Positions 896 to 13,388 of a stretch of 19,354 bases of DNA are shown here, piece after piece; position 1 is the first letter of the stretch; each line of letters starts with the position of its first letter. The notes beneath the pieces are model-generated. The model was not told the origin of the DNA and made no database searches. It was given only the letters and a program-made list of their open reading frames with translations. The DNA is from a virus (taxonomy: Duplodnaviria > Heunggongvirae > Uroviricota > Caudoviricetes), in IMG/VR virus record IMGVR_UViG_2537561977_000019, positions 1 to 19,354 of that record; one strand, 5' to 3'. The position numbers and the translations under genes are program-made.

Positions 896-970
<75 letters not shown>

Positions 971-973
971 ATA

Positions 974-1049
<76 letters not shown>

Positions 1050-1051
1050 GC

Positions 1052-1128
1052 TGGCCCACCACCGAGGACTCGAACCTCGCACCGTCAACTTAGAAGGTTG
1101 ATGCTCTATCCGGATGAGCTAGTGGTGG
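1052..1128 (-). tRNA. tRNA-Arg (anticodon UCU)
   Basis: 77-nt cloverleaf: acceptor CCACCAC/GTGGTGG (unusual C1-G72), anticodon stem TCAAC/GTTGA with loop CTTCTAA, T-arm CGAGG-TTCGAGT-CCTCG, encoded CCA. Confidence 0.7.
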
Positions 1129-1129
1129 T

Positions 1130-1205
1130 TGGTGGCCCTTGCTGGACTTGAACCAGCGACCTGGCGATTATGAGTCGCTCGCTCTCACCACTGAGCTAAA
1201 GGGCC
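1130..1205 (-). tRNA. tRNA with CAU anticodon (Ile2/ileX-like, or elongator Met)
   Basis: Acceptor GGCCCTT/AAGGGCC, anticodon loop CTCATAA, T-arm GCTGG-TTCAAGT-CCAGC, encoded CCA. Close to my memory of E. coli ileX; Ile versus Met identity cannot be decided from sequence alone. Confidence 0.75.
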
Positions 1206-8173: not shown

Positions 8174-8394
8174 GCTGCACCTCCGAGATGCTTCATGTTT
8201 TTTCCGGAGCGAAAGGCTATAAGCGGCATACTGACGCGGTAATTACGGCCCAGCGGTTCACAAATCACCTTCTGACATTCACGGTCAACCAGGCTAACAC
8301 GTAGAACATGCCCTGCAGGCGTGGTGTACCACTGACCCGGACGAGGACAACGGAAAGTCTGATTGGTAAAACGTTTGAAAATATTCCGGATCAT
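8170..8394 (-). CDS. Small hypothetical protein (74 aa), possibly DUF4222-like
   Basis: ATGA overlaps at both ends (8391-8394 and 8170-8173) place it in the coupled early-right operon. The family guess is from a weak motif memory only. Confidence 0.45.
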   Translation of the reverse strand: MIRNIFKRFTNQTFRCPRPGQWYTTPAGHVLRVSLVDRECQKVICEPLGRNYRVSMPLIAFRSGKNMKHLGGAA

Positions 8395-9554
8395 TTACGC
8401 CCCCTTACCTCTGAAGGGTTCAGCGACAAATTTATGAGACTGGCCAGTAGCGCCGCGTCGTTGATGCGGTCATACAGACTTACAGCCAGCGGGGATTCGG
8501 CTTTTGCCAACATGGGATAAAGCTGCTGCAGCCAGACCTGATGAATTGATGAAATGTAGGAATAGAGAACGCTGGCGTTATGTGCAACGTCGCTCAGTAC
8601 AGAGGGATTTGAAAGCTGTTTCTCCATCTGGTTAAAGGCATTGATGTATGCCTCTTTGAACCGGGCAGCACGTTTACCCGTGAAACCCATAGCAAGAAAC
8701 GCAAAGCCGTCGCGGGTTATTTGATAGCAAGGAAGTTTGCGAGTACCGCCGTTGGGCTGGCGTACCAAAATTGATGTCTCCGCAAAATTGCGGGCACAAA
8801 ACTCTGGAGAACAATCCAAAATGCGGATCTTTTTCAGAACATCGTCATGACGTTTAGAGAAGAAGTCAGCAACAGCCAAAGAAGATGTAACAGCCTGACC
8901 ATCAACGATGGCAATTTCAGGTTGAGAGAGGGTTGGGAGAGTAGTCATGGTGACAGCCCCGGTAGTCAGTTTTTTAGAAAACTCACCACATGGGACGCCA
9001 ATCACAGAGGTGGTGAGACGTACAGGGTTGGCGTTACCGGAGACTACCGAACCCGGCCCGACCGAAGTCGGCCCTGTACGCCCCACCATAATTTGGGCGT
9101 AGCAATGCTCATGACACGAAAAAACCGCATGAGCGCGGTTATGCTCAGTAATCAATTTCAGGACGCCAATCCCGGCACCCGTTTTATAAGGTGCCTGAAC
9201 AGTGTAACGTCCCGGAATGGCAGAATCAATGTGCTGGTGGTCCTTCACACTCAACAAAATCACGCCTGAATTTCCACAAAGGACTAAAGCACTCATGCGG
9301 GTAGTCTTTGCGAAGATAGATAACGCGCTGTGTTTCTGGCTCCCAACGAATAACATGAACATAAAGTCCTCTTCCGTCACGAAACCAGCGGTTAAGTTCC
9401 TGCACAACTCGCCCCCCACAGTCAGGTAAAGTTCTCTGTGGTTACTTACAGCCAGGTGATTTGGTAATCTGCATTCATGCCGTAACAACAGGTGTGCAGC
9501 GACACTGACCACCAGCTGTTGCGACAAACGGTTATTTGCCGTTAAACTGTTCAT
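8391..9554 (-). CDS. Rha-family regulatory-domain protein with a ~200-aa N-terminal extension of unknown function
   Basis: Residues ~205-330 match the Rha pattern (AVADFFSKRHDDVLKKIRIL ... RDGFAFLAMGFTGKRAARFKEAYINAFNQME). ATG at 9554 overlaps the upstream stop (ATGA) with a GGAG SD; the frame stays open for 387 codons. An internal ATG at 8948 would give an Rha-only protein. Confidence 0.6.
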   Translation of the reverse strand: MNSLTANNRLSQQLVVSVAAHLLLRHECRLPNHLAVSNHRELYLTVGGELCRNLTAGFVTEEDFMFMLFVGSQKHSALSIFAKTTRMSALVLCGNSGVILLSVKDHQHIDSAIPGRYTVQAPYKTGAGIGVLKLITEHNRAHAVFSCHEHCYAQIMVGRTGPTSVGPGSVVSGNANPVRLTTSVIGVPCGEFSKKLTTGAVTMTTLPTLSQPEIAIVDGQAVTSSLAVADFFSKRHDDVLKKIRILDCSPEFCARNFAETSILVRQPNGGTRKLPCYQITRDGFAFLAMGFTGKRAARFKEAYINAFNQMEKQLSNPSVLSDVAHNASVLYSYISSIHQVWLQQLYPMLAKAESPLAVSLYDRINDAALLASLINLSLNPSEVRGRK

Positions 9555-10163: not shown

Positions 10164-10427
10164 TTACGCAGCTGAACCGCTAACTTTTGAATAGCACTCA
10201 GGTAATCCATCATTTGGATTGGGGTAAATATCAGGACGCAGTTCATGAGGGGTCACGGACCAGTTTCCCAACTCACAAAGTTGTAAAACCCGTTCTGACG
10301 GGACTTGATTGTTAATTACCCAATTAGCGACGGATTGAGTGGACTTAAAACCAAAGCGACGGGCTACTTCAGATAAAGATTTTCCCGCAGCTTTTACTGC
10401 TTTCTCTGTGTAGTTTTGAGATGACAT
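10164..10427 (-). CDS. Cro-like HTH regulator (YdaS-like)
   Basis: 87 aa with an HTH segment (LSEVARRFGFKSTQSVANWV), divergent from the CI-like gene; GAGGAG SD before the ATG at 10427. Confidence 0.75.
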   Translation of the reverse strand: MSSQNYTEKAVKAAGKSLSEVARRFGFKSTQSVANWVINNQVPSERVLQLCELGNWSVTPHELRPDIYPNPNDGLPECYSKVSGSAA

Positions 10428-10533
10428 ACCTTTCTCCTCTGAAATTCAGAGGGATAATGCTACTTAAAATAGCAAAATGCAACTACTTAAAATAGAAATG
10501 ACTAGCGTATGTGATGTGAGTAATCTTCTACCT
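10428..10533. promoter_or_regulatory. Immunity-region operator/promoter interval (OR with divergent pR and pRM)
   Basis: 106-bp interval between divergent cro-like and cI-like starts. Contains two exact 13-bp direct repeats CTACTTAAAATAG (10460-10472, 10483-10495). Minus strand carries TTGCAT-17-CATTAT as a pR-like element. Confidence 0.5.
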
Positions 10534-11238
10534 ATGGTAGAAGAACAGAAGTATCCAGATTTCGCCAAGAGACTAAACGAGCTAATGACAAACAAGGGAA
10601 TTTCTGTCACCCAACTCAAAAGTCTTGTGGGCGTTACATATGAAATGGCGCGGCGATACACAATCGGCGCTGCGAAGCCTCGTGCCTCTGTCATGAATAA
10701 ACTTGCATTGGCTCTGGGGGTATCAGCTTCATATTTAGAATATGGTGTTGGCGAGAGAGAAGGATGTAAGGAAATGACAAGCATCCCCAATCCAACAAAA
10801 CCCGATGTATACAGGATAGAAGTTTTGGATCTTAGCGTTAGCGCAGGACCTGGGACCTATATGCTTTCAGACTATGTTGATGTGCTCTACGCCATTGAGT
10901 TCACAACAGAACATGCCCGTTCTCTTTTCGGCAACCGTTCTCAGGATGATATTAAGGTTATGACTGTAAATGGCGATAGTATGTCCCCTACTCTCGTTTC
11001 CGGAGACCGACTGTTTGTCGACATTTCTGTTCGTCACTTCCAGACTGATGGAGTTTACTCTTTCGTTTACGGTAAGACTTTTCATGTCAAACGTCTTCAA
11101 ATGCAAGGTGACAAGCTAGCCGTTCTTTCGGATAACCCCGCCTATGAGAAATGGTATATCGATGAAAAATCGCAGGATCAGCTTTATGTAATGGGCAAGG
11201 CGTTGATTCACGAATCTATAAAATACAACCGATTGTAA
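10534..11238 (+). CDS. CI-like prophage repressor (HTH plus S24 LexA-like peptidase domain)
   Basis: N-terminal HTH (FAKRLNELMTNKGISVTQLKSLVG) and C-terminal S24 motifs (VNGDSMSPTL ... GDRLFVD ... KRL). Start is uncertain: in-frame ATGs at 10477, 10498 and 10534, none with an SD, consistent with a leaderless pRM transcript. Confidence 0.8.
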   Translation: MVEEQKYPDFAKRLNELMTNKGISVTQLKSLVGVTYEMARRYTIGAAKPRASVMNKLALALGVSASYLEYGVGEREGCKEMTSIPNPTKPDVYRIEVLDLSVSAGPGTYMLSDYVDVLYAIEFTTEHARSLFGNRSQDDIKVMTVNGDSMSPTLVSGDRLFVDISVRHFQTDGVYSFVYGKTFHVKRLQMQGDKLAVLSDNPAYEKWYIDEKSQDQLYVMGKALIHESIKYNRL

Positions 11239-11282
11239 AACTCAATCCTTTCAGGATTAAAAGATCTAAAAGGATAATAATA

Positions 11283-11690
11283 ATGAAATCTGAACTATTT
11301 CATAACGAAGCAAATTCAGAAATTATCACCGCAGATGAGTTTATTGATTTCATAAACTCTTTCAAAAAGCCTTTAATTTGCCAAATTTGCGGAAATCAAT
11401 CATGGAGTGTAGTCGGTACTCTAGAACTTGAAGTTGAAGACAATCAGCCAAAACATCACGTAATCGAAGTTCTCAGCTATGCCCAATACAAACCTGAAAC
11501 TGATAGCGCTATAAATTATCCTGGTGGTATGCCGCTGTTTCGAATCACCTGTGATCACTGTGCACATGTACTTCTTTTTTCTTATAAAAAAGCTAGATCA
11601 TTGATCCAAAAAAGAAAAATGAAAAAGAAGAGGATGGGAAATGACGCGACCTTATCTCAGAGCAGTACCAAACTGTGGATCTGGTATTGA
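11283..11690 (+). CDS. Hypothetical Zn-ribbon protein (135 aa) in an AT-rich cassette co-oriented with cI
   Basis: ATG at 11283 with an AAGGA SD, 45 nt after the cI stop. Two CxxC pairs (CQICGN and CDHC) and a basic C-terminus. AT-rich composition by eye. Confidence 0.55.
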   Translation: MKSELFHNEANSEIITADEFIDFINSFKKPLICQICGNQSWSVVGTLELEVEDNQPKHHVIEVLSYAQYKPETDSAINYPGGMPLFRITCDHCAHVLLFSYKKARSLIQKRKMKKKRMGNDATLSQSSTKLWIWY

Positions 11691-12273
11691 TAAGTGTGAC
11701 CTTTACCCCAATGTTAAGAACAGGCTGCGCGTCGGTATAGAAGAAATGTATACTGATTTTATCGAATCCGCAGATGAAACTTACAAAACTGATGGGGGAA
11801 ATAAAATGTCATCAGTTAGTCGAGAAGAAATTCAAGCACTTTTAGCTGCCAATAAAGCAGAAATGGAGTCCATTGCATCCTCTATTAGAGTTGAAATGGC
11901 TTTATCTCGCGAGAACACAAACGTTCAGCTAGCATCTCTAAATTCAGCCATCAATTCTATCTCTTCGAAAATCGAAGGCAAAATGGACAGTGTTGACGGG
12001 GATGTGAAGGCCATCAATGGTAGATTCGAAGGTATACAAGGCCAAATTACTGGAATAAATACAGCCATTAGTGGTATTCAATCTGGAATTTCTACCAGAC
12101 TTGCTATTTTTGGAGTTATCATTGCGGTCATAGTTGCATTACCTAGCATAATTTCTGCTTTTAAAGATACTTCGCCAGTAGTTCAACCAGTTACACAACA
12201 ACCAAGTGTTAAACATCTCAACCAAGAACCAATTACTCCACAAGTATTACCTCCGCAGGGAAAAGCAAACTAA
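11641..12273 (+). CDS. Hypothetical coiled-coil protein with a single C-terminal transmembrane helix
   Basis: Two candidate starts, each with a good SD: 11641 (GAGGA, overlaps the previous ORF by 50 nt) and 11806 (GGGGGA). Heptad-like Ser/Ile/Gly repeats, then LAIFGVIIAVIVALPSIISAF and a Pro/Gln-rich tail. Confidence 0.55.
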   Translation: MTRPYLRAVPNCGSGIDKCDLYPNVKNRLRVGIEEMYTDFIESADETYKTDGGNKMSSVSREEIQALLAANKAEMESIASSIRVEMALSRENTNVQLASLNSAINSISSKIEGKMDSVDGDVKAINGRFEGIQGQITGINTAISGIQSGISTRLAIFGVIIAVIVALPSIISAFKDTSPVVQPVTQQPSVKHLNQEPITPQVLPPQGKAN

Positions 12274-12297
12274 ACCGGCTTTATGCCGGTTTTTTTC
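12274..12297 (+). terminator. Intrinsic terminator ending the cI-linked cassette
   Basis: Stem ACCGGC (12274-12279) / GCCGGT (12285-12290), loop TTTAT, followed by TTTTTTC. Confidence 0.75.
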
Positions 12298-12399
12298 TAT
12301 ACAAACGCCCCCTCTTTGTCTTGAATCACATCACAACACATTTAAAAAACATTTTAAATTCAAAGCATTAAACGCATCAACGCATATCAAACAAATTAT

Positions 12400-12448
12400 C
12401 TACTTTTAGTTGTTGATTTTTGCTACTTTTGGTAGCAGAATTATTTTA
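12400..12448 (+). promoter_or_regulatory. Candidate pL/OL: plus-strand promoter overlapping operator-like sites
   Basis: TTGCTA (12420-12425), 16-nt spacer, TATTTT (12442-12447). Overlaps CTACTTTTGGTAG (12423-12435) and sits next to CTACTTTTAG (12400-12409), both sharing the CTACTT...TAG ends of the OR repeats. Confidence 0.4.
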
Positions 12449-12520
12449 ACGACAACGAACAGGCAGGACGCCCACGAAGTAGCCGCCTGGGGCATATGAA
12501 GTCCAGGATGATTCGTTAGC

Positions 12521-12547
12521 AACAAAAAAGCGCCCTACAGGACGCTT
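12521..12547 (-). terminator. Intrinsic terminator for the convergent minus-strand gene
   Basis: Stem AAGCG / CGCTT with a 10-nt loop, followed on the minus strand by TTTTTTGT. Confidence 0.45.
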
Positions 12548-12585
12548 AGCTCTTTAACAATCTGGATATCCACAACAGTAGTAAT

Positions 12586-13077
12586 CTACAGATTGCCGTT
12601 AAGTTTTCTGGACAACTCCTCAATGGATGGAGGCGATACGTAATCCGGATTTTTATTCATCAGAAACTTATTTTCACAGTGGAGGCACCTGCTTTTATGA
12701 AAAAGCTCATCTTCGCTAACCGGGAATGGTTGAAGTATCGATACTATCTTTTGTCCAAAACATTTTGGGCAAAGATGCATGGTTATGCTGCCACCGTTCA
12801 CGATTACCTCCTTCGAGTATACAAAAGTACCCGACTCAAGTTGGTTAAGGATATAGCCTTCCGTCTGAGCCTCAAAGTTTTCGAATTCTGCAATTTTAGC
12901 TTTGAGAGAAGCATTTATTTCTTGATAAGAGCCCACCAGTTCAACGAGAGACACGCATTCGCGCTGAATAGACGCAAGCTTTGAGTTCAGCTCACCAATA
13001 GCCGCATTTACTTCAGCTTGAGTTTTTGCCTCGTTCATTAGTTTTGCAATCTGGGCTGTTTCACGAATAGCCGTCAT
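12586..13077 (-). CDS. Hypothetical coiled-coil protein with a C-terminal Zn-ribbon (about 163 aa)
   Basis: AT-rich ORF convergent on the cI cassette. Likely start ATG 13077 or GTG 13101 (AAGAG SD); the longer ORF-track N-terminus is Arg/Pro-rich and judged non-coding. C-terminus HLCPKCFGQ ... CLHCENKF. Confidence 0.5.
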   Translation of the reverse strand: MTAIRETAQIAKLMNEAKTQAEVNAAIGELNSKLASIQRECVSLVELVGSYQEINASLKAKIAEFENFEAQTEGYILNQLESGTFVYSKEVIVNGGSITMHLCPKCFGQKIVSILQPFPVSEDELFHKSRCLHCENKFLMNKNPDYVSPPSIEELSRKLNGNL

Positions 13078-13115
13078 TGCTGCCGTTAATTCAGCGATCA
13101 CATTGAATACTCTTA

Positions 13116-13169
13116 TTGTTGTTGGGGATATCCAGATTAACCGAATCCTTGTTGTTGGGGAATAACCAG
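13116..13169. repeat. Tandem direct repeat TTGTTGTTGGGGA-TA-CCAG (two copies)
   Basis: 13116-13135 TTGTTGTTGGGGATATCCAG and 13149-13169 TTGTTGTTGGGGAATAACCAG, just upstream of the minus-strand gene start. Confidence 0.4.
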
Positions 13170-13388
13170 GTCCACCTCGCCTGATGTGGCTAAAAGCAGG
13201 CACATAACAGCTAAGTATTTTCAACCAGAGAGAATCCTTAGCGTTGTGGTGAATGCGGCTCAGCGCACGCGGGTTAAGGTTGAGGCTGACAGTCGACCTT
13301 CTGTGGATACCCACCCGTCTGGTGTGCAACCTTCGCCAGGCACCGGGAGGCACCCGGCACCACAACTTTATGCTGTGTGTAGTCCTGG

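Follow-up and report, generated by a model that had tools for sequence, protein, structure and literature searches.

The stretch of DNA analysed here, 19,354 nucleotides of the Caudoviricetes record IMGVR_UViG_2537561977_000019 (hereafter the window), carries the immunity region of an SfV/e14/CPS-53-like lambdoid prophage of Escherichia coli, and our subject is a motif, CTACTT-N4-TAG, found between its divergent cro-like and cI-like genes (the right operator region, OR) and again at the candidate leftward early promoter, pL, beyond the cI operon (the left operator region, OL). Near-identical DNA (99-100%) is present in several complete E. coli chromosomes, in which the Prokaryotic Genome Annotation Pipeline (PGAP) calls a YmfL-family (CII-like) gene, a small 'transcriptional regulator' at the position of the cro-like gene in Table 1, a divergent 'XRE family transcriptional regulator' at that of the cI-like gene and then two hypothetical genes, with yfdP/yfdQ/yfdR-type early-left genes further to the right. 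The names 'cro' and 'cI' were given in a first-pass annotation made from the sequence alone, and they are justified because Pfam and PHROGs domain matches place a YdaS/Cro-type helix-turn-helix (HTH) on the minus strand and HTH_3 plus Peptidase_S24 on the plus strand. The OR sites are thus flanked by a cro-type gene and a divergent repressor that combines an HTH with a LexA-like S24 domain.

Table 1. Coordinates of genes, sites, promoters and RNA elements of the immunity region (positions in the window; ORF, open reading frame; SD, Shine-Dalgarno sequence)
Feature	Positions	Strand	Basis or remarks
cro-like gene, 87 aa, YdaS/Cro-type HTH, strong SD	10164-10427	-	Pfam YdaS_toxin 4.6e-11; phrog_35 transcriptional repressor 2e-20; anti-SD pairing -9.1 kcal/mol
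Predicted pR: -35 TTGCAT (10482-10477), 17-bp spacer, -10 CATTAT (10459-10454), start near 10447	10454-10482	-	Read from sequence; pL-like layout
OR1 TGCTACTTAAAATAGCA	10458-10474	.	7/8 symmetric; 22.4 bits; conserved in four allelic prophages
OR2 AACTACTTAAAATAGAA	10481-10497	.	5/8 symmetric; 19.9 bits; invariant in four alleles
Candidate pRM: -35 ATGACT (10498-10503), 17-bp spacer, -10 TAATCT (10521-10526), +1 at 10533/10534	10498-10526	+	Read from sequence; weak, 7/12 matches
OR3 TTCTACCTATGGTAGAA	10526-10542	.	7/8 symmetric; 21.1 bits; centred on cI ATG 10534
cI-like repressor, 234 aa, HTH_3 + Peptidase_S24 autocleavage domain	10534-11238	+	Pfam; phrog_4 7e-50; PGAP start in identical prophages; homology
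Two co-oriented ORFs in cI operon (lambda rexAB position)	11283-12273	+	phrog_4293 and phrog_5820
Intrinsic terminator closing cI operon	12272-12292	+	8-bp stem, 5 GC pairs, T-run
OL2 ATCTACTTTTAGTTGTT, degenerate right half	12398-12414	.	5/8 symmetric; 17.2 bits; 12.6 bits with OR-only matrix
Predicted pL: -35 TTGATT (12413-12418), 17-bp spacer, -10 CAGAAT (12436-12441), start near 12448	12413-12441	+	Top promoter match upstream of leader RNA
OL1 TGCTACTTTTGGTAGCA	12421-12437	.	6/8 symmetric; 21.1 bits with OR-only matrix
Structured leader RNA, ~66 nt, helices P1 + P2, invariant core GCCCACGAAGUAGC	12453-12518	+	Covariation; covariance model 93.5 bits

Palindromic sites at OR and OL

The four motif strings from which the first-pass annotation started are all present, namely CTACTTAAAATAG at 10460-10472 and again at 10483-10495 in OR, and CTACTTTTGGTAG at 12423-12435 and CTACTTTTAG at 12400-12409 at the candidate pL. 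Their recurrence is not random, as CTACTTNNNNTAG has three copies in 19.4 kb where 0.07 are expected, a number reached in 0 of 200 shuffles. The same annotation took the sites to be direct rather than palindromic and hence unusual for CI operators, and here we disagree on both counts. When each site is extended by two bases on either side to a 17-mer and symmetry is scored over 8 position pairs, the five sites show 7, 5, 7, 5 and 6 symmetric positions (OR1, OR2, OR3, OL2, OL1) and are imperfect palindromes of an ordinary, HK022-like kind (xCTAC-N5-GTAGx), so that the claim of unusual operators is unsupported. A third OR site had also been overlooked beside the two correctly placed copies; it is revealed by the relaxed symmetric core CTAC-N5-GTAG, and the cI-cro intergenic region therefore holds three 17-mers that share a half-site with approximate twofold symmetry. 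An OL1 allele carried with the same repressor in APEC O18/NCTC86, TGCTACTTTAAGTAGCA, is a perfect palindrome, and for this reason we take TGCTACTT as the consensus half-site, which gives an operator consensus of TGCTACTT-N-AAGTAGCA around the CTAC-N5-GTAG core.

A symmetrised weight matrix was built from the three OR sites only, with 200 locally shuffled windows as controls. The two top non-training matches of this matrix in the 19-kb window were OL1 and OL2, and the top score of the shuffled windows had a mean of 11.8 +/- 2.2 bits and a maximum of 20.2. With a matrix made from all five sites no further site scored above 8 bits anywhere in the window, and a third OL site, sought with the matrix, was not found. 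As nothing else exceeds 8 bits, the operator set comprises three OR sites and two OL sites. The likeness between the two regions extends beyond single sites: the inverted pair listed first for this region by a repeat finder has 39-nt arms at 10458-10496 and 12399-12437 that are 79% complementary. In both arms a site, a 6-bp linker and a second site follow one another with a centre-to-centre distance of 23 bp, OR1-OR2 and OL2-OL1 being inverted relative to each other on the two flanks of the cI operon, and OR and OL therefore share a whole promoter-operator module and not merely a motif. By both the OR-only matrix and the inverted repeat, the motif recurs past cI beside the leftward early promoter and essentially nowhere else.

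This immunity type is present in 207 of 5426 complete E. coli genomes (~4%), with alleles that are 94-100% identical over a 500-bp probe across the switch. When four alleles are compared, substitutions in OR lie chiefly between the sites, and the two that fall inside a site are both in OR1 of KFu022, where one A to G change raises the symmetry and another, at the last base, lowers it. At OL the sequence to the left of OL2 cannot be aligned, the genes upstream being two hypothetical ORFs, a ParA-family gene or other ORFs depending on the allele, and a sharply conserved block starts at OL2 and runs through OL1. Variation within the OL operators is almost wholly restricted to the central bases, in which alone the OL1 alleles TGCTACTTTAAGTAGCA and TGCTACTTTTAGTAGCA differ from OL1 of the window; the main exception is OL1 of KFu022, in which CTAC has become CAAC. 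The KFu022 allele of OL2, TTCTACTTTTTGTAGTT, restores CTAC-N5-GTAG.

Predicted promoters covered by the sites

The sites overlap promoter-like hexamers in the same way on both sides of the cI operon. OR1 fills the spacer of the predicted pR with a 2-bp overlap into its -10, and OR2 overlaps the -35 and abuts the -35 of the candidate pRM; correspondingly, OL1 fills the spacer of the predicted pL and overlaps its -10, and OL2 overlaps the -35 by 2 bp. In each module the proximal operator contributes the first two bases of the -10 (CA) and the distal operator covers two bases of the -35. The predicted pR -10 remains CAnnAT in allelic variants (CATCAT in APEC O18/RM12761), and the strong SD of cro sits in the 20-nt leader that follows it.

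The assignment of pL and pR draws on this duplicated architecture, on the precedent of HK022 and on a conserved leader RNA just downstream of pL, described below, as the hexamers are weak and are not called by a promoter scan. Upstream of this RNA a promoter with at least 9 of 12 consensus positions is present in 48 of 118 scored regions (from 122 distinct ones) and in 2 of 99 control segments. The predicted pL -10 ends 11 nt before the RNA, within the commonest range of 11-14 nt (43 of the 118), and this spacing is indirect support for placing pL, together with OL1 and OL2, at a functional promoter. That the motif copies are repressor operators common to the cro/cI intergenic region and the leftward early promoter, as the first-pass annotation had proposed, is well supported as a reading of the sequence by the statistics, the promoter overlap, the inverted duplicated module and the comparison with the HK022 family.

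The start of cI

It had also been noted that none of three in-frame cI start codons has an SD, and a leaderless pRM transcript as in lambda was suggested. The first part holds for every in-frame start (ATG 10477, 10498, 10534 and 10585; GTG 10516), with anti-SD pairing of -2.9 kcal/mol or weaker; ATG 10534 has -2.2 kcal/mol and the median over all ATGs of the window is -2.5, as against -9.1 for cro and -5.4 to -8.7 for the neighbouring ymfL and the two ORFs downstream of cI. The start that matters is, however, ATG 10534 and not the upstream in-frame ATGs. It is the start by PGAP and by homology, OR3 is centred on it, and it is fixed as the cI start by the relatives, whose third OR site also contains the cI ATG-GT. 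The upstream ATGs are unlikely starts because they lie inside the predicted pR -35 (ATG 10477) or precede OR3. A leaderless or near-leaderless cI message from pRM is plausible, and consistent with the absence of an SD, with a weak -35/-10 pair that would place +1 at ATG 10534 and with the ATG-in-operator layout of HK022 and HK75. Leaderless initiation is a feature of lambda pRM, and the sequence would be compatible with the same for cI of the window. The weakness of pRM is as expected for an activator-dependent promoter.

Comparison with HK022 and other relatives

The window CI aligns with HK022 CI at 42% identity over 100% coverage (E = 5e-55, tblastn). Its closest phage repressor is that of HK639 (58% identical), followed by those of HK022 and HK75, and an alignment of these relatives has highly conserved C-terminal domains and diverged N-terminal DNA-binding domains. 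A PDB sequence search with the window CI returned no match, and a search of genome contigs gave three loci only, so that the comparative set is small.

In the GenBank records of HK75 and of the original sequence for the HK022 immunity region, oR1-oR3 are annotated as 15-mers (TGAACTTATGGTTCA and variants) with centres 24 and 33 bp apart; oR3 is centred on the cI ATG (in HK75, where cI starts at 2501, it occupies 2494-2508), the pL spacer contains oL1, which overlaps the -10, and oL2 abuts the -35. The window thus resembles these phages in having palindromes of 15-17 bp of the form xxxAC-N5-GTxxx, in the 23-24 bp between adjacent sites, in a third OR site centred on the ATG of a cI protein that begins MV, and in one OL site within the pL spacer with the next abutting the -35; HK75 cI likewise has no SD. 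Two heteroimmune prophages recovered with the window CI follow the same plan with palindromes of their own. Citrobacter L006 has TTAAC-N5-GTTAA and Enterobacter L007 has TGAAC-N5-GTWCA, each with three OR sites of which the third holds the cI ATG-GT (protein beginning MV). Downstream of its cI block, L006 carries the palindrome twice, at a spacing of 24 bp; the L007 locus yielded no OL copy. HK639 has three copies of ATAAC-N4-GTTAT at OR and another three at its annotated pL, and its cI starts after the third OR site and not within it. Overall, the third OR site holds the cI ATG in three of four relatives (HK75, L006 and L007, not HK639), and the phage's own palindrome is repeated at OL in three of four (HK75, L006 and HK639, not L007). 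Across these switches, therefore, a change of palindrome goes with a change of the CI N-terminal domain and the architecture is retained, which is the signature expected of an operator.

The DNA specificity is not that of HK022. Its operators are TGAAC-N5-GTTCA and those of the window (T/G)CTAC-N5-GTAG(A/C), with diverged N-terminal domains. From this difference of half-site (TGCTAC/TCTAC against TGAAC) the window prophage should be heteroimmune to HK022, a relative of a different immunity type. Other differences from HK022 are that no OFR-like distal site was found in the window, that Cro is of the YdaS type, that OL and OR are 1.9 kb apart, with two extra genes after cI, against ~0.7 kb in HK022, and that the RNA element after pL differs from HK022 put. 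Lambda has the same divergent cI and cro, three 17-bp OR sites with partial twofold symmetry, the same sites at OL beyond cI, accessory genes after cI (the rexAB position) and a cI without an SD; its operators have no detectable sequence similarity to those of the window, which lacks an N gene and nut sites, and its third site lies on the pRM -35/-10 rather than on the cI start codon. HK639, SfV and e14 share the prophage backbone (ymfL and yfdP/Q/R-type early-left genes), and SfV and e14 also the pL leader RNA and the position of pL relative to it, but their operator palindromes differ from the CTAC-N5-GTAG core of the window, being of the ATAAC-N4-GTTAT form in HK639 and of a TGTACC type in SfV and e14. 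No relevant paper was found in a full-text literature search with the operator sequences.

A proposed model for the switch

We propose that the CTAC...TAG motif very probably represents five palindromic repressor operators of an HK022-type lambdoid switch with a new DNA specificity. Directly observed are the five sites with their symmetry, the non-random way in which they recur and overlap promoter-like hexamers, their persistence across alleles, and a matching plan with a different palindrome in homologues; the assignment of proteins to sites, together with cooperativity, looping, activation and every transcription start, is what we infer from these. In the proposed model the LexA-like CI, and presumably also the divergent Cro-like protein, would bind the 17-bp palindromes as a dimer. 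Occupation of OR1, in the spacer and -10 of pR, and of OR2, over its -35, would repress pR, and OL1 and OL2 would act likewise at pL. Repressor dimers would most likely fill each operator pair cooperatively, since the pairs form a 39-bp inverted duplicate with 23-bp centre spacing, shutting both lytic operons. CI of HK022 binds adjacent operators cooperatively and forms an OL-OR loop (PMC8053113), and by analogy the window CI probably loops the 1.9 kb between OL and OR; both properties are extrapolated here from homology and the 23-bp spacing. Repressor bound at OR2 would probably activate a leaderless or near-leaderless cI message from the abutting weak pRM, and OR3, centred on the cI ATG, would switch cI off at high repressor levels.

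Several details fit this model less well and weigh against it. The predicted pR, with OR1 in its spacer, is unlike the annotated HK022 pR, whose spacer holds oR2 and whose -10 is followed by oR1, and only two OL sites were found where HK022 has three. The hexamers are weak, with consensus matches at -35 and -10 of 4/6 and 4/6 for pL, 3/6 and 4/6 for pR and 4/6 and 3/6 for pRM, and a generic promoter scan of the window called none of them. An alternative pL -10 that lies 3 bp downstream (AATTAT, CATAAT or TATCAT in different alleles) is nearer to consensus but requires a 20-bp spacer. OR2 and OR3 are spaced by 45 bp where HK022 has 33 bp, and the distance from OR2 to the predicted pRM start exceeds that of lambda by ~3 bp, which makes the geometry of pRM activation uncertain. 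Two other promoter layouts were considered and set aside: the downstream pL -10 (AATTAT), which needs the 20-bp spacer and would lie 8 nt from the leader RNA, as in only one other scored upstream region, and an HK022-like pR with OR2 in the spacer and OR1 downstream, for which the required hexamers, TCATTT and TGCATT, are poor.

Other explanations of the motif have to be weighed against repressor operators. Both regions are AT-rich and OL2 alone, at 12.6 bits with the OR-only matrix, does no better than the top match of a shuffled window, so that the copies might be thought chance similarities in AT-rich intergenic DNA with no regulatory role. This idea has next to no credibility and is effectively refuted by the statistics and the comparison, since the exact pattern occurs 3 times against an expected 0.07, OL1 outscores the top match of all 200 shuffles, the 39-nt inverted duplicate keeps an identical 23-bp spacing, the sites stay conserved in alleles with unrelated flanks, and homologous switches have the same layout with other palindromes. 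It is also improbable that the sites are direct-repeat targets of another regulator, either the CII-like YmfL or a Rha/Ash-type protein of the pR operon. CII-type activators bind direct repeats around a -35, which a direct-repeat reading would suit, and both a CII-like gene (phrog_101, 3e-62) and the Rha/Ash protein are encoded nearby; the sites are, however, palindromic, they lie over the lytic promoters and the start of cI instead of on either side of the -35 of a cI-directed promoter, and in relatives the palindrome varies with the N-terminal domain of CI while the C-terminal domains are conserved.

The palindrome at 12418-12440 with its T-rich tract could, finally, be a terminator or other RNA hairpin, with the leader RNA reached by read-through from the cI operon, and a terminator scan does list it as terminator-like, with a 10-pair stem that has 3 GC pairs only. 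We consider this, too, improbable, given that a much stronger terminator lies 130 bp upstream (12272-12292), that the same palindrome occurs at OR without a T-run, that in other phages near-consensus promoters such as TTGACA-N17-TACATT stand equally far ahead of the leader RNA, and that oL1 of HK022 occupies exactly the same position within pL. As repressor operators, the five sites define a previously uncharacterised immunity specificity, and their consensus can be used for typing these prophages and for predicting superinfection immunity. The switch should also be useful for studying how specificity changes in the HK022 family while the architecture with the cI ATG in OR3 is kept. The operator set leaves the understanding of lambdoid switches unchanged and is ordinary biology.

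A conserved leader RNA downstream of pL

The leader RNA serves to locate pL but does not belong to the operators, and of the two elements it is the more interesting. A megablast comparison of the region with phage genomes gave almost no matches in the immunity genes and did match a short block from ~12452 to many heteroimmune phages, in each case ~100-120 bp past the repressor gene and in DNA without annotation. The RNA is unannotated in every record examined, and it occurs in a broad set of N-less temperate phages and elements that includes SfV/SfII/SfIV, ST64B, ZF40, YeP1, AH07, mEp237, SEN34, SPN3UB, Klebsiella phages, a T5-like Providencia phage and the e14 element of K-12. The copy of K-12 MG1655 (74 bits) lies in cryptic e14 between ymfK (cohE) and ymfJ (NC_000913.3 1,202,111-1,202,177; minus strand of our locus L145, 6112-6178), just after a TTGACA...CATAAT promoter flanked by SfV-type operators, and no non-coding RNA is annotated there.

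Its structure is supported by covariation. In 15 aligned sequences compensatory changes occur in P1 (for example AACGAA/TTCGTT, AGCGAA/TTCGCT and CCACC/GGTGG) and in P2 (for example CCTGG/CCAGG, CCCGA/TCGGG, CTACC/GGTAG and CCGGT/ACCGG), and RNAalifold predicts the two helices alike. In this structure 95% of cells are paired and 9 of 10 pairs have double changes, and sliding the partners by 1-3 columns lowers pairing to 19-48%. A covariance model finds a single copy in the window and 73 matches in 80 IMG/VR loci that carry the core 16-mer; over 60 distinct sequences all 10 pairs have compensatory changes and 95.8% of cells pair, in an alignment that is fitted to the model and so leans towards the structure. 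Single-sequence folding is unremarkable (z = -1.4), and the structure accordingly rests on covariation, not energy. Wobble pairs are not decisive for the strand (G-U/U-G in 7 cells against A-C/C-A in 18, mostly from two clades), and it is the promoter context only that argues for an RNA on the plus strand. Rfam has no family for the leader or operator region, either over the whole window at the gathering threshold, where only C4, isrK and tRNAs were found and these elsewhere in the window, or over 12300-12700 at E <= 10. A full-text search with the core sequence found no relevant paper, and no second copy on the pR side was found in the window.

The put RNA of HK022 promotes read-through of terminators via the zinc-binding domain of the RNA polymerase beta' subunit. 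In HK022, putL is a structured antiterminator RNA at the 5' end of the pL transcript (PMC9378689), and SfII, SfIV and SfV lack an N protein (PMC3851460). The leader RNA resembles put in being a structured RNA of ~65-70 nt immediately downstream of pL, at the 5' end of the early-left transcript of an N-less lambdoid phage. It differs in having a closing helix P1 around an invariant core of ~26 nt plus a hairpin P2, instead of two long tandem stems, and in being single, with no putR counterpart in the window. Neither the model nor Rfam gives any similarity in sequence or structure to putL/putR: the model has no match at E <= 10 in the loci of HK75 (putL/putR) and HK639 (putL-like RNA), and homology to the put RNAs of HK022 and HK639 was rejected, as was homology to the 'M3-like RNA' of HK639.

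By analogy with HK022 putL, whose place at the 5' end of pL transcripts it shares in N-less phages, a put-like cis-acting antiterminator is the leading candidate for what the leader RNA may be. No strong plus-strand terminators were found downstream of it in the window, which weighs against this hypothesis and means that a need for antitermination here is not demonstrated. It is a tentative and rather doubtful proposition that the leader represents an undescribed class of RNA, a cis-acting, protein-independent processive antiterminator analogous to put and unrelated to it in sequence and fold. For phages of the SfV/ST64B/e14 type, which have neither N protein nor put, the leader RNA makes passage through early-left terminators directly testable.

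Directly after the leader RNA, and facing pL, lies a minus-strand ORF (12586-13365, 259 aa, phrog_1244) with a strong terminator of its own (12528-12547, minus strand), and the pL transcript must therefore cross a hairpin and an antisense gene to reach the yfdP/Q/R-type genes. PhiR29_1 and PhiR29_2 (99.5% identical) have the same arrangement of an opposing minus-strand ORF. A second conserved block, GTTAACGCGCAG...AAACGTTCCGC(T/C)GGCC, occurs ~5-45 nt after the leader RNA in a clade formed by mEp237, SEN34, SPN3UB and Klebsiella ST974phi18.2 (L018-L021), and upstream of the leader RNA in two IMG/VR contigs (L040 and L062); it may be a further conserved non-coding element.

Other features of the prophage

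The two ORFs that follow cI (11283-11690 and 11641-12273, plus strand) overlap each other, and the second has weak coiled-coil-type Pfam matches (Baculo_PEP_C and NPV_P10) and a marginal PADLOC match to PbeC. In prophages of the same immunity these ORFs are replaced by a ParA-family gene or other ORFs, and the slot after cI is a swappable one for lysogen-expressed cargo, which possibly serves exclusion or defence. The prophage of 20AR1039 (L001 5184-5546), otherwise 99.6% identical, has a 1-nt length difference across the region matching 11283-11690, and its first cargo ORF is 120 aa long by PGAP where that of the window has 135 aa, which may reflect a frameshift polymorphism between the two.

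In the pR operon, Rfam matches to C4 antisense RNA (82 bits, 9006-9093) and isrK (60 bits, 9118-9194), both on the minus strand, lie inside or beside an Ash/Rha-type ORF (8391-9554). This region looks like a c4-ant module of the P1/P7 style for secondary immunity (antirepressor control), which the prophage would carry in addition to its CI/Cro switch. Four tandem tRNA genes (899-1205, minus strand) occupy the left end of the window and presumably form the lambdoid tRNA cluster found upstream of the late region.

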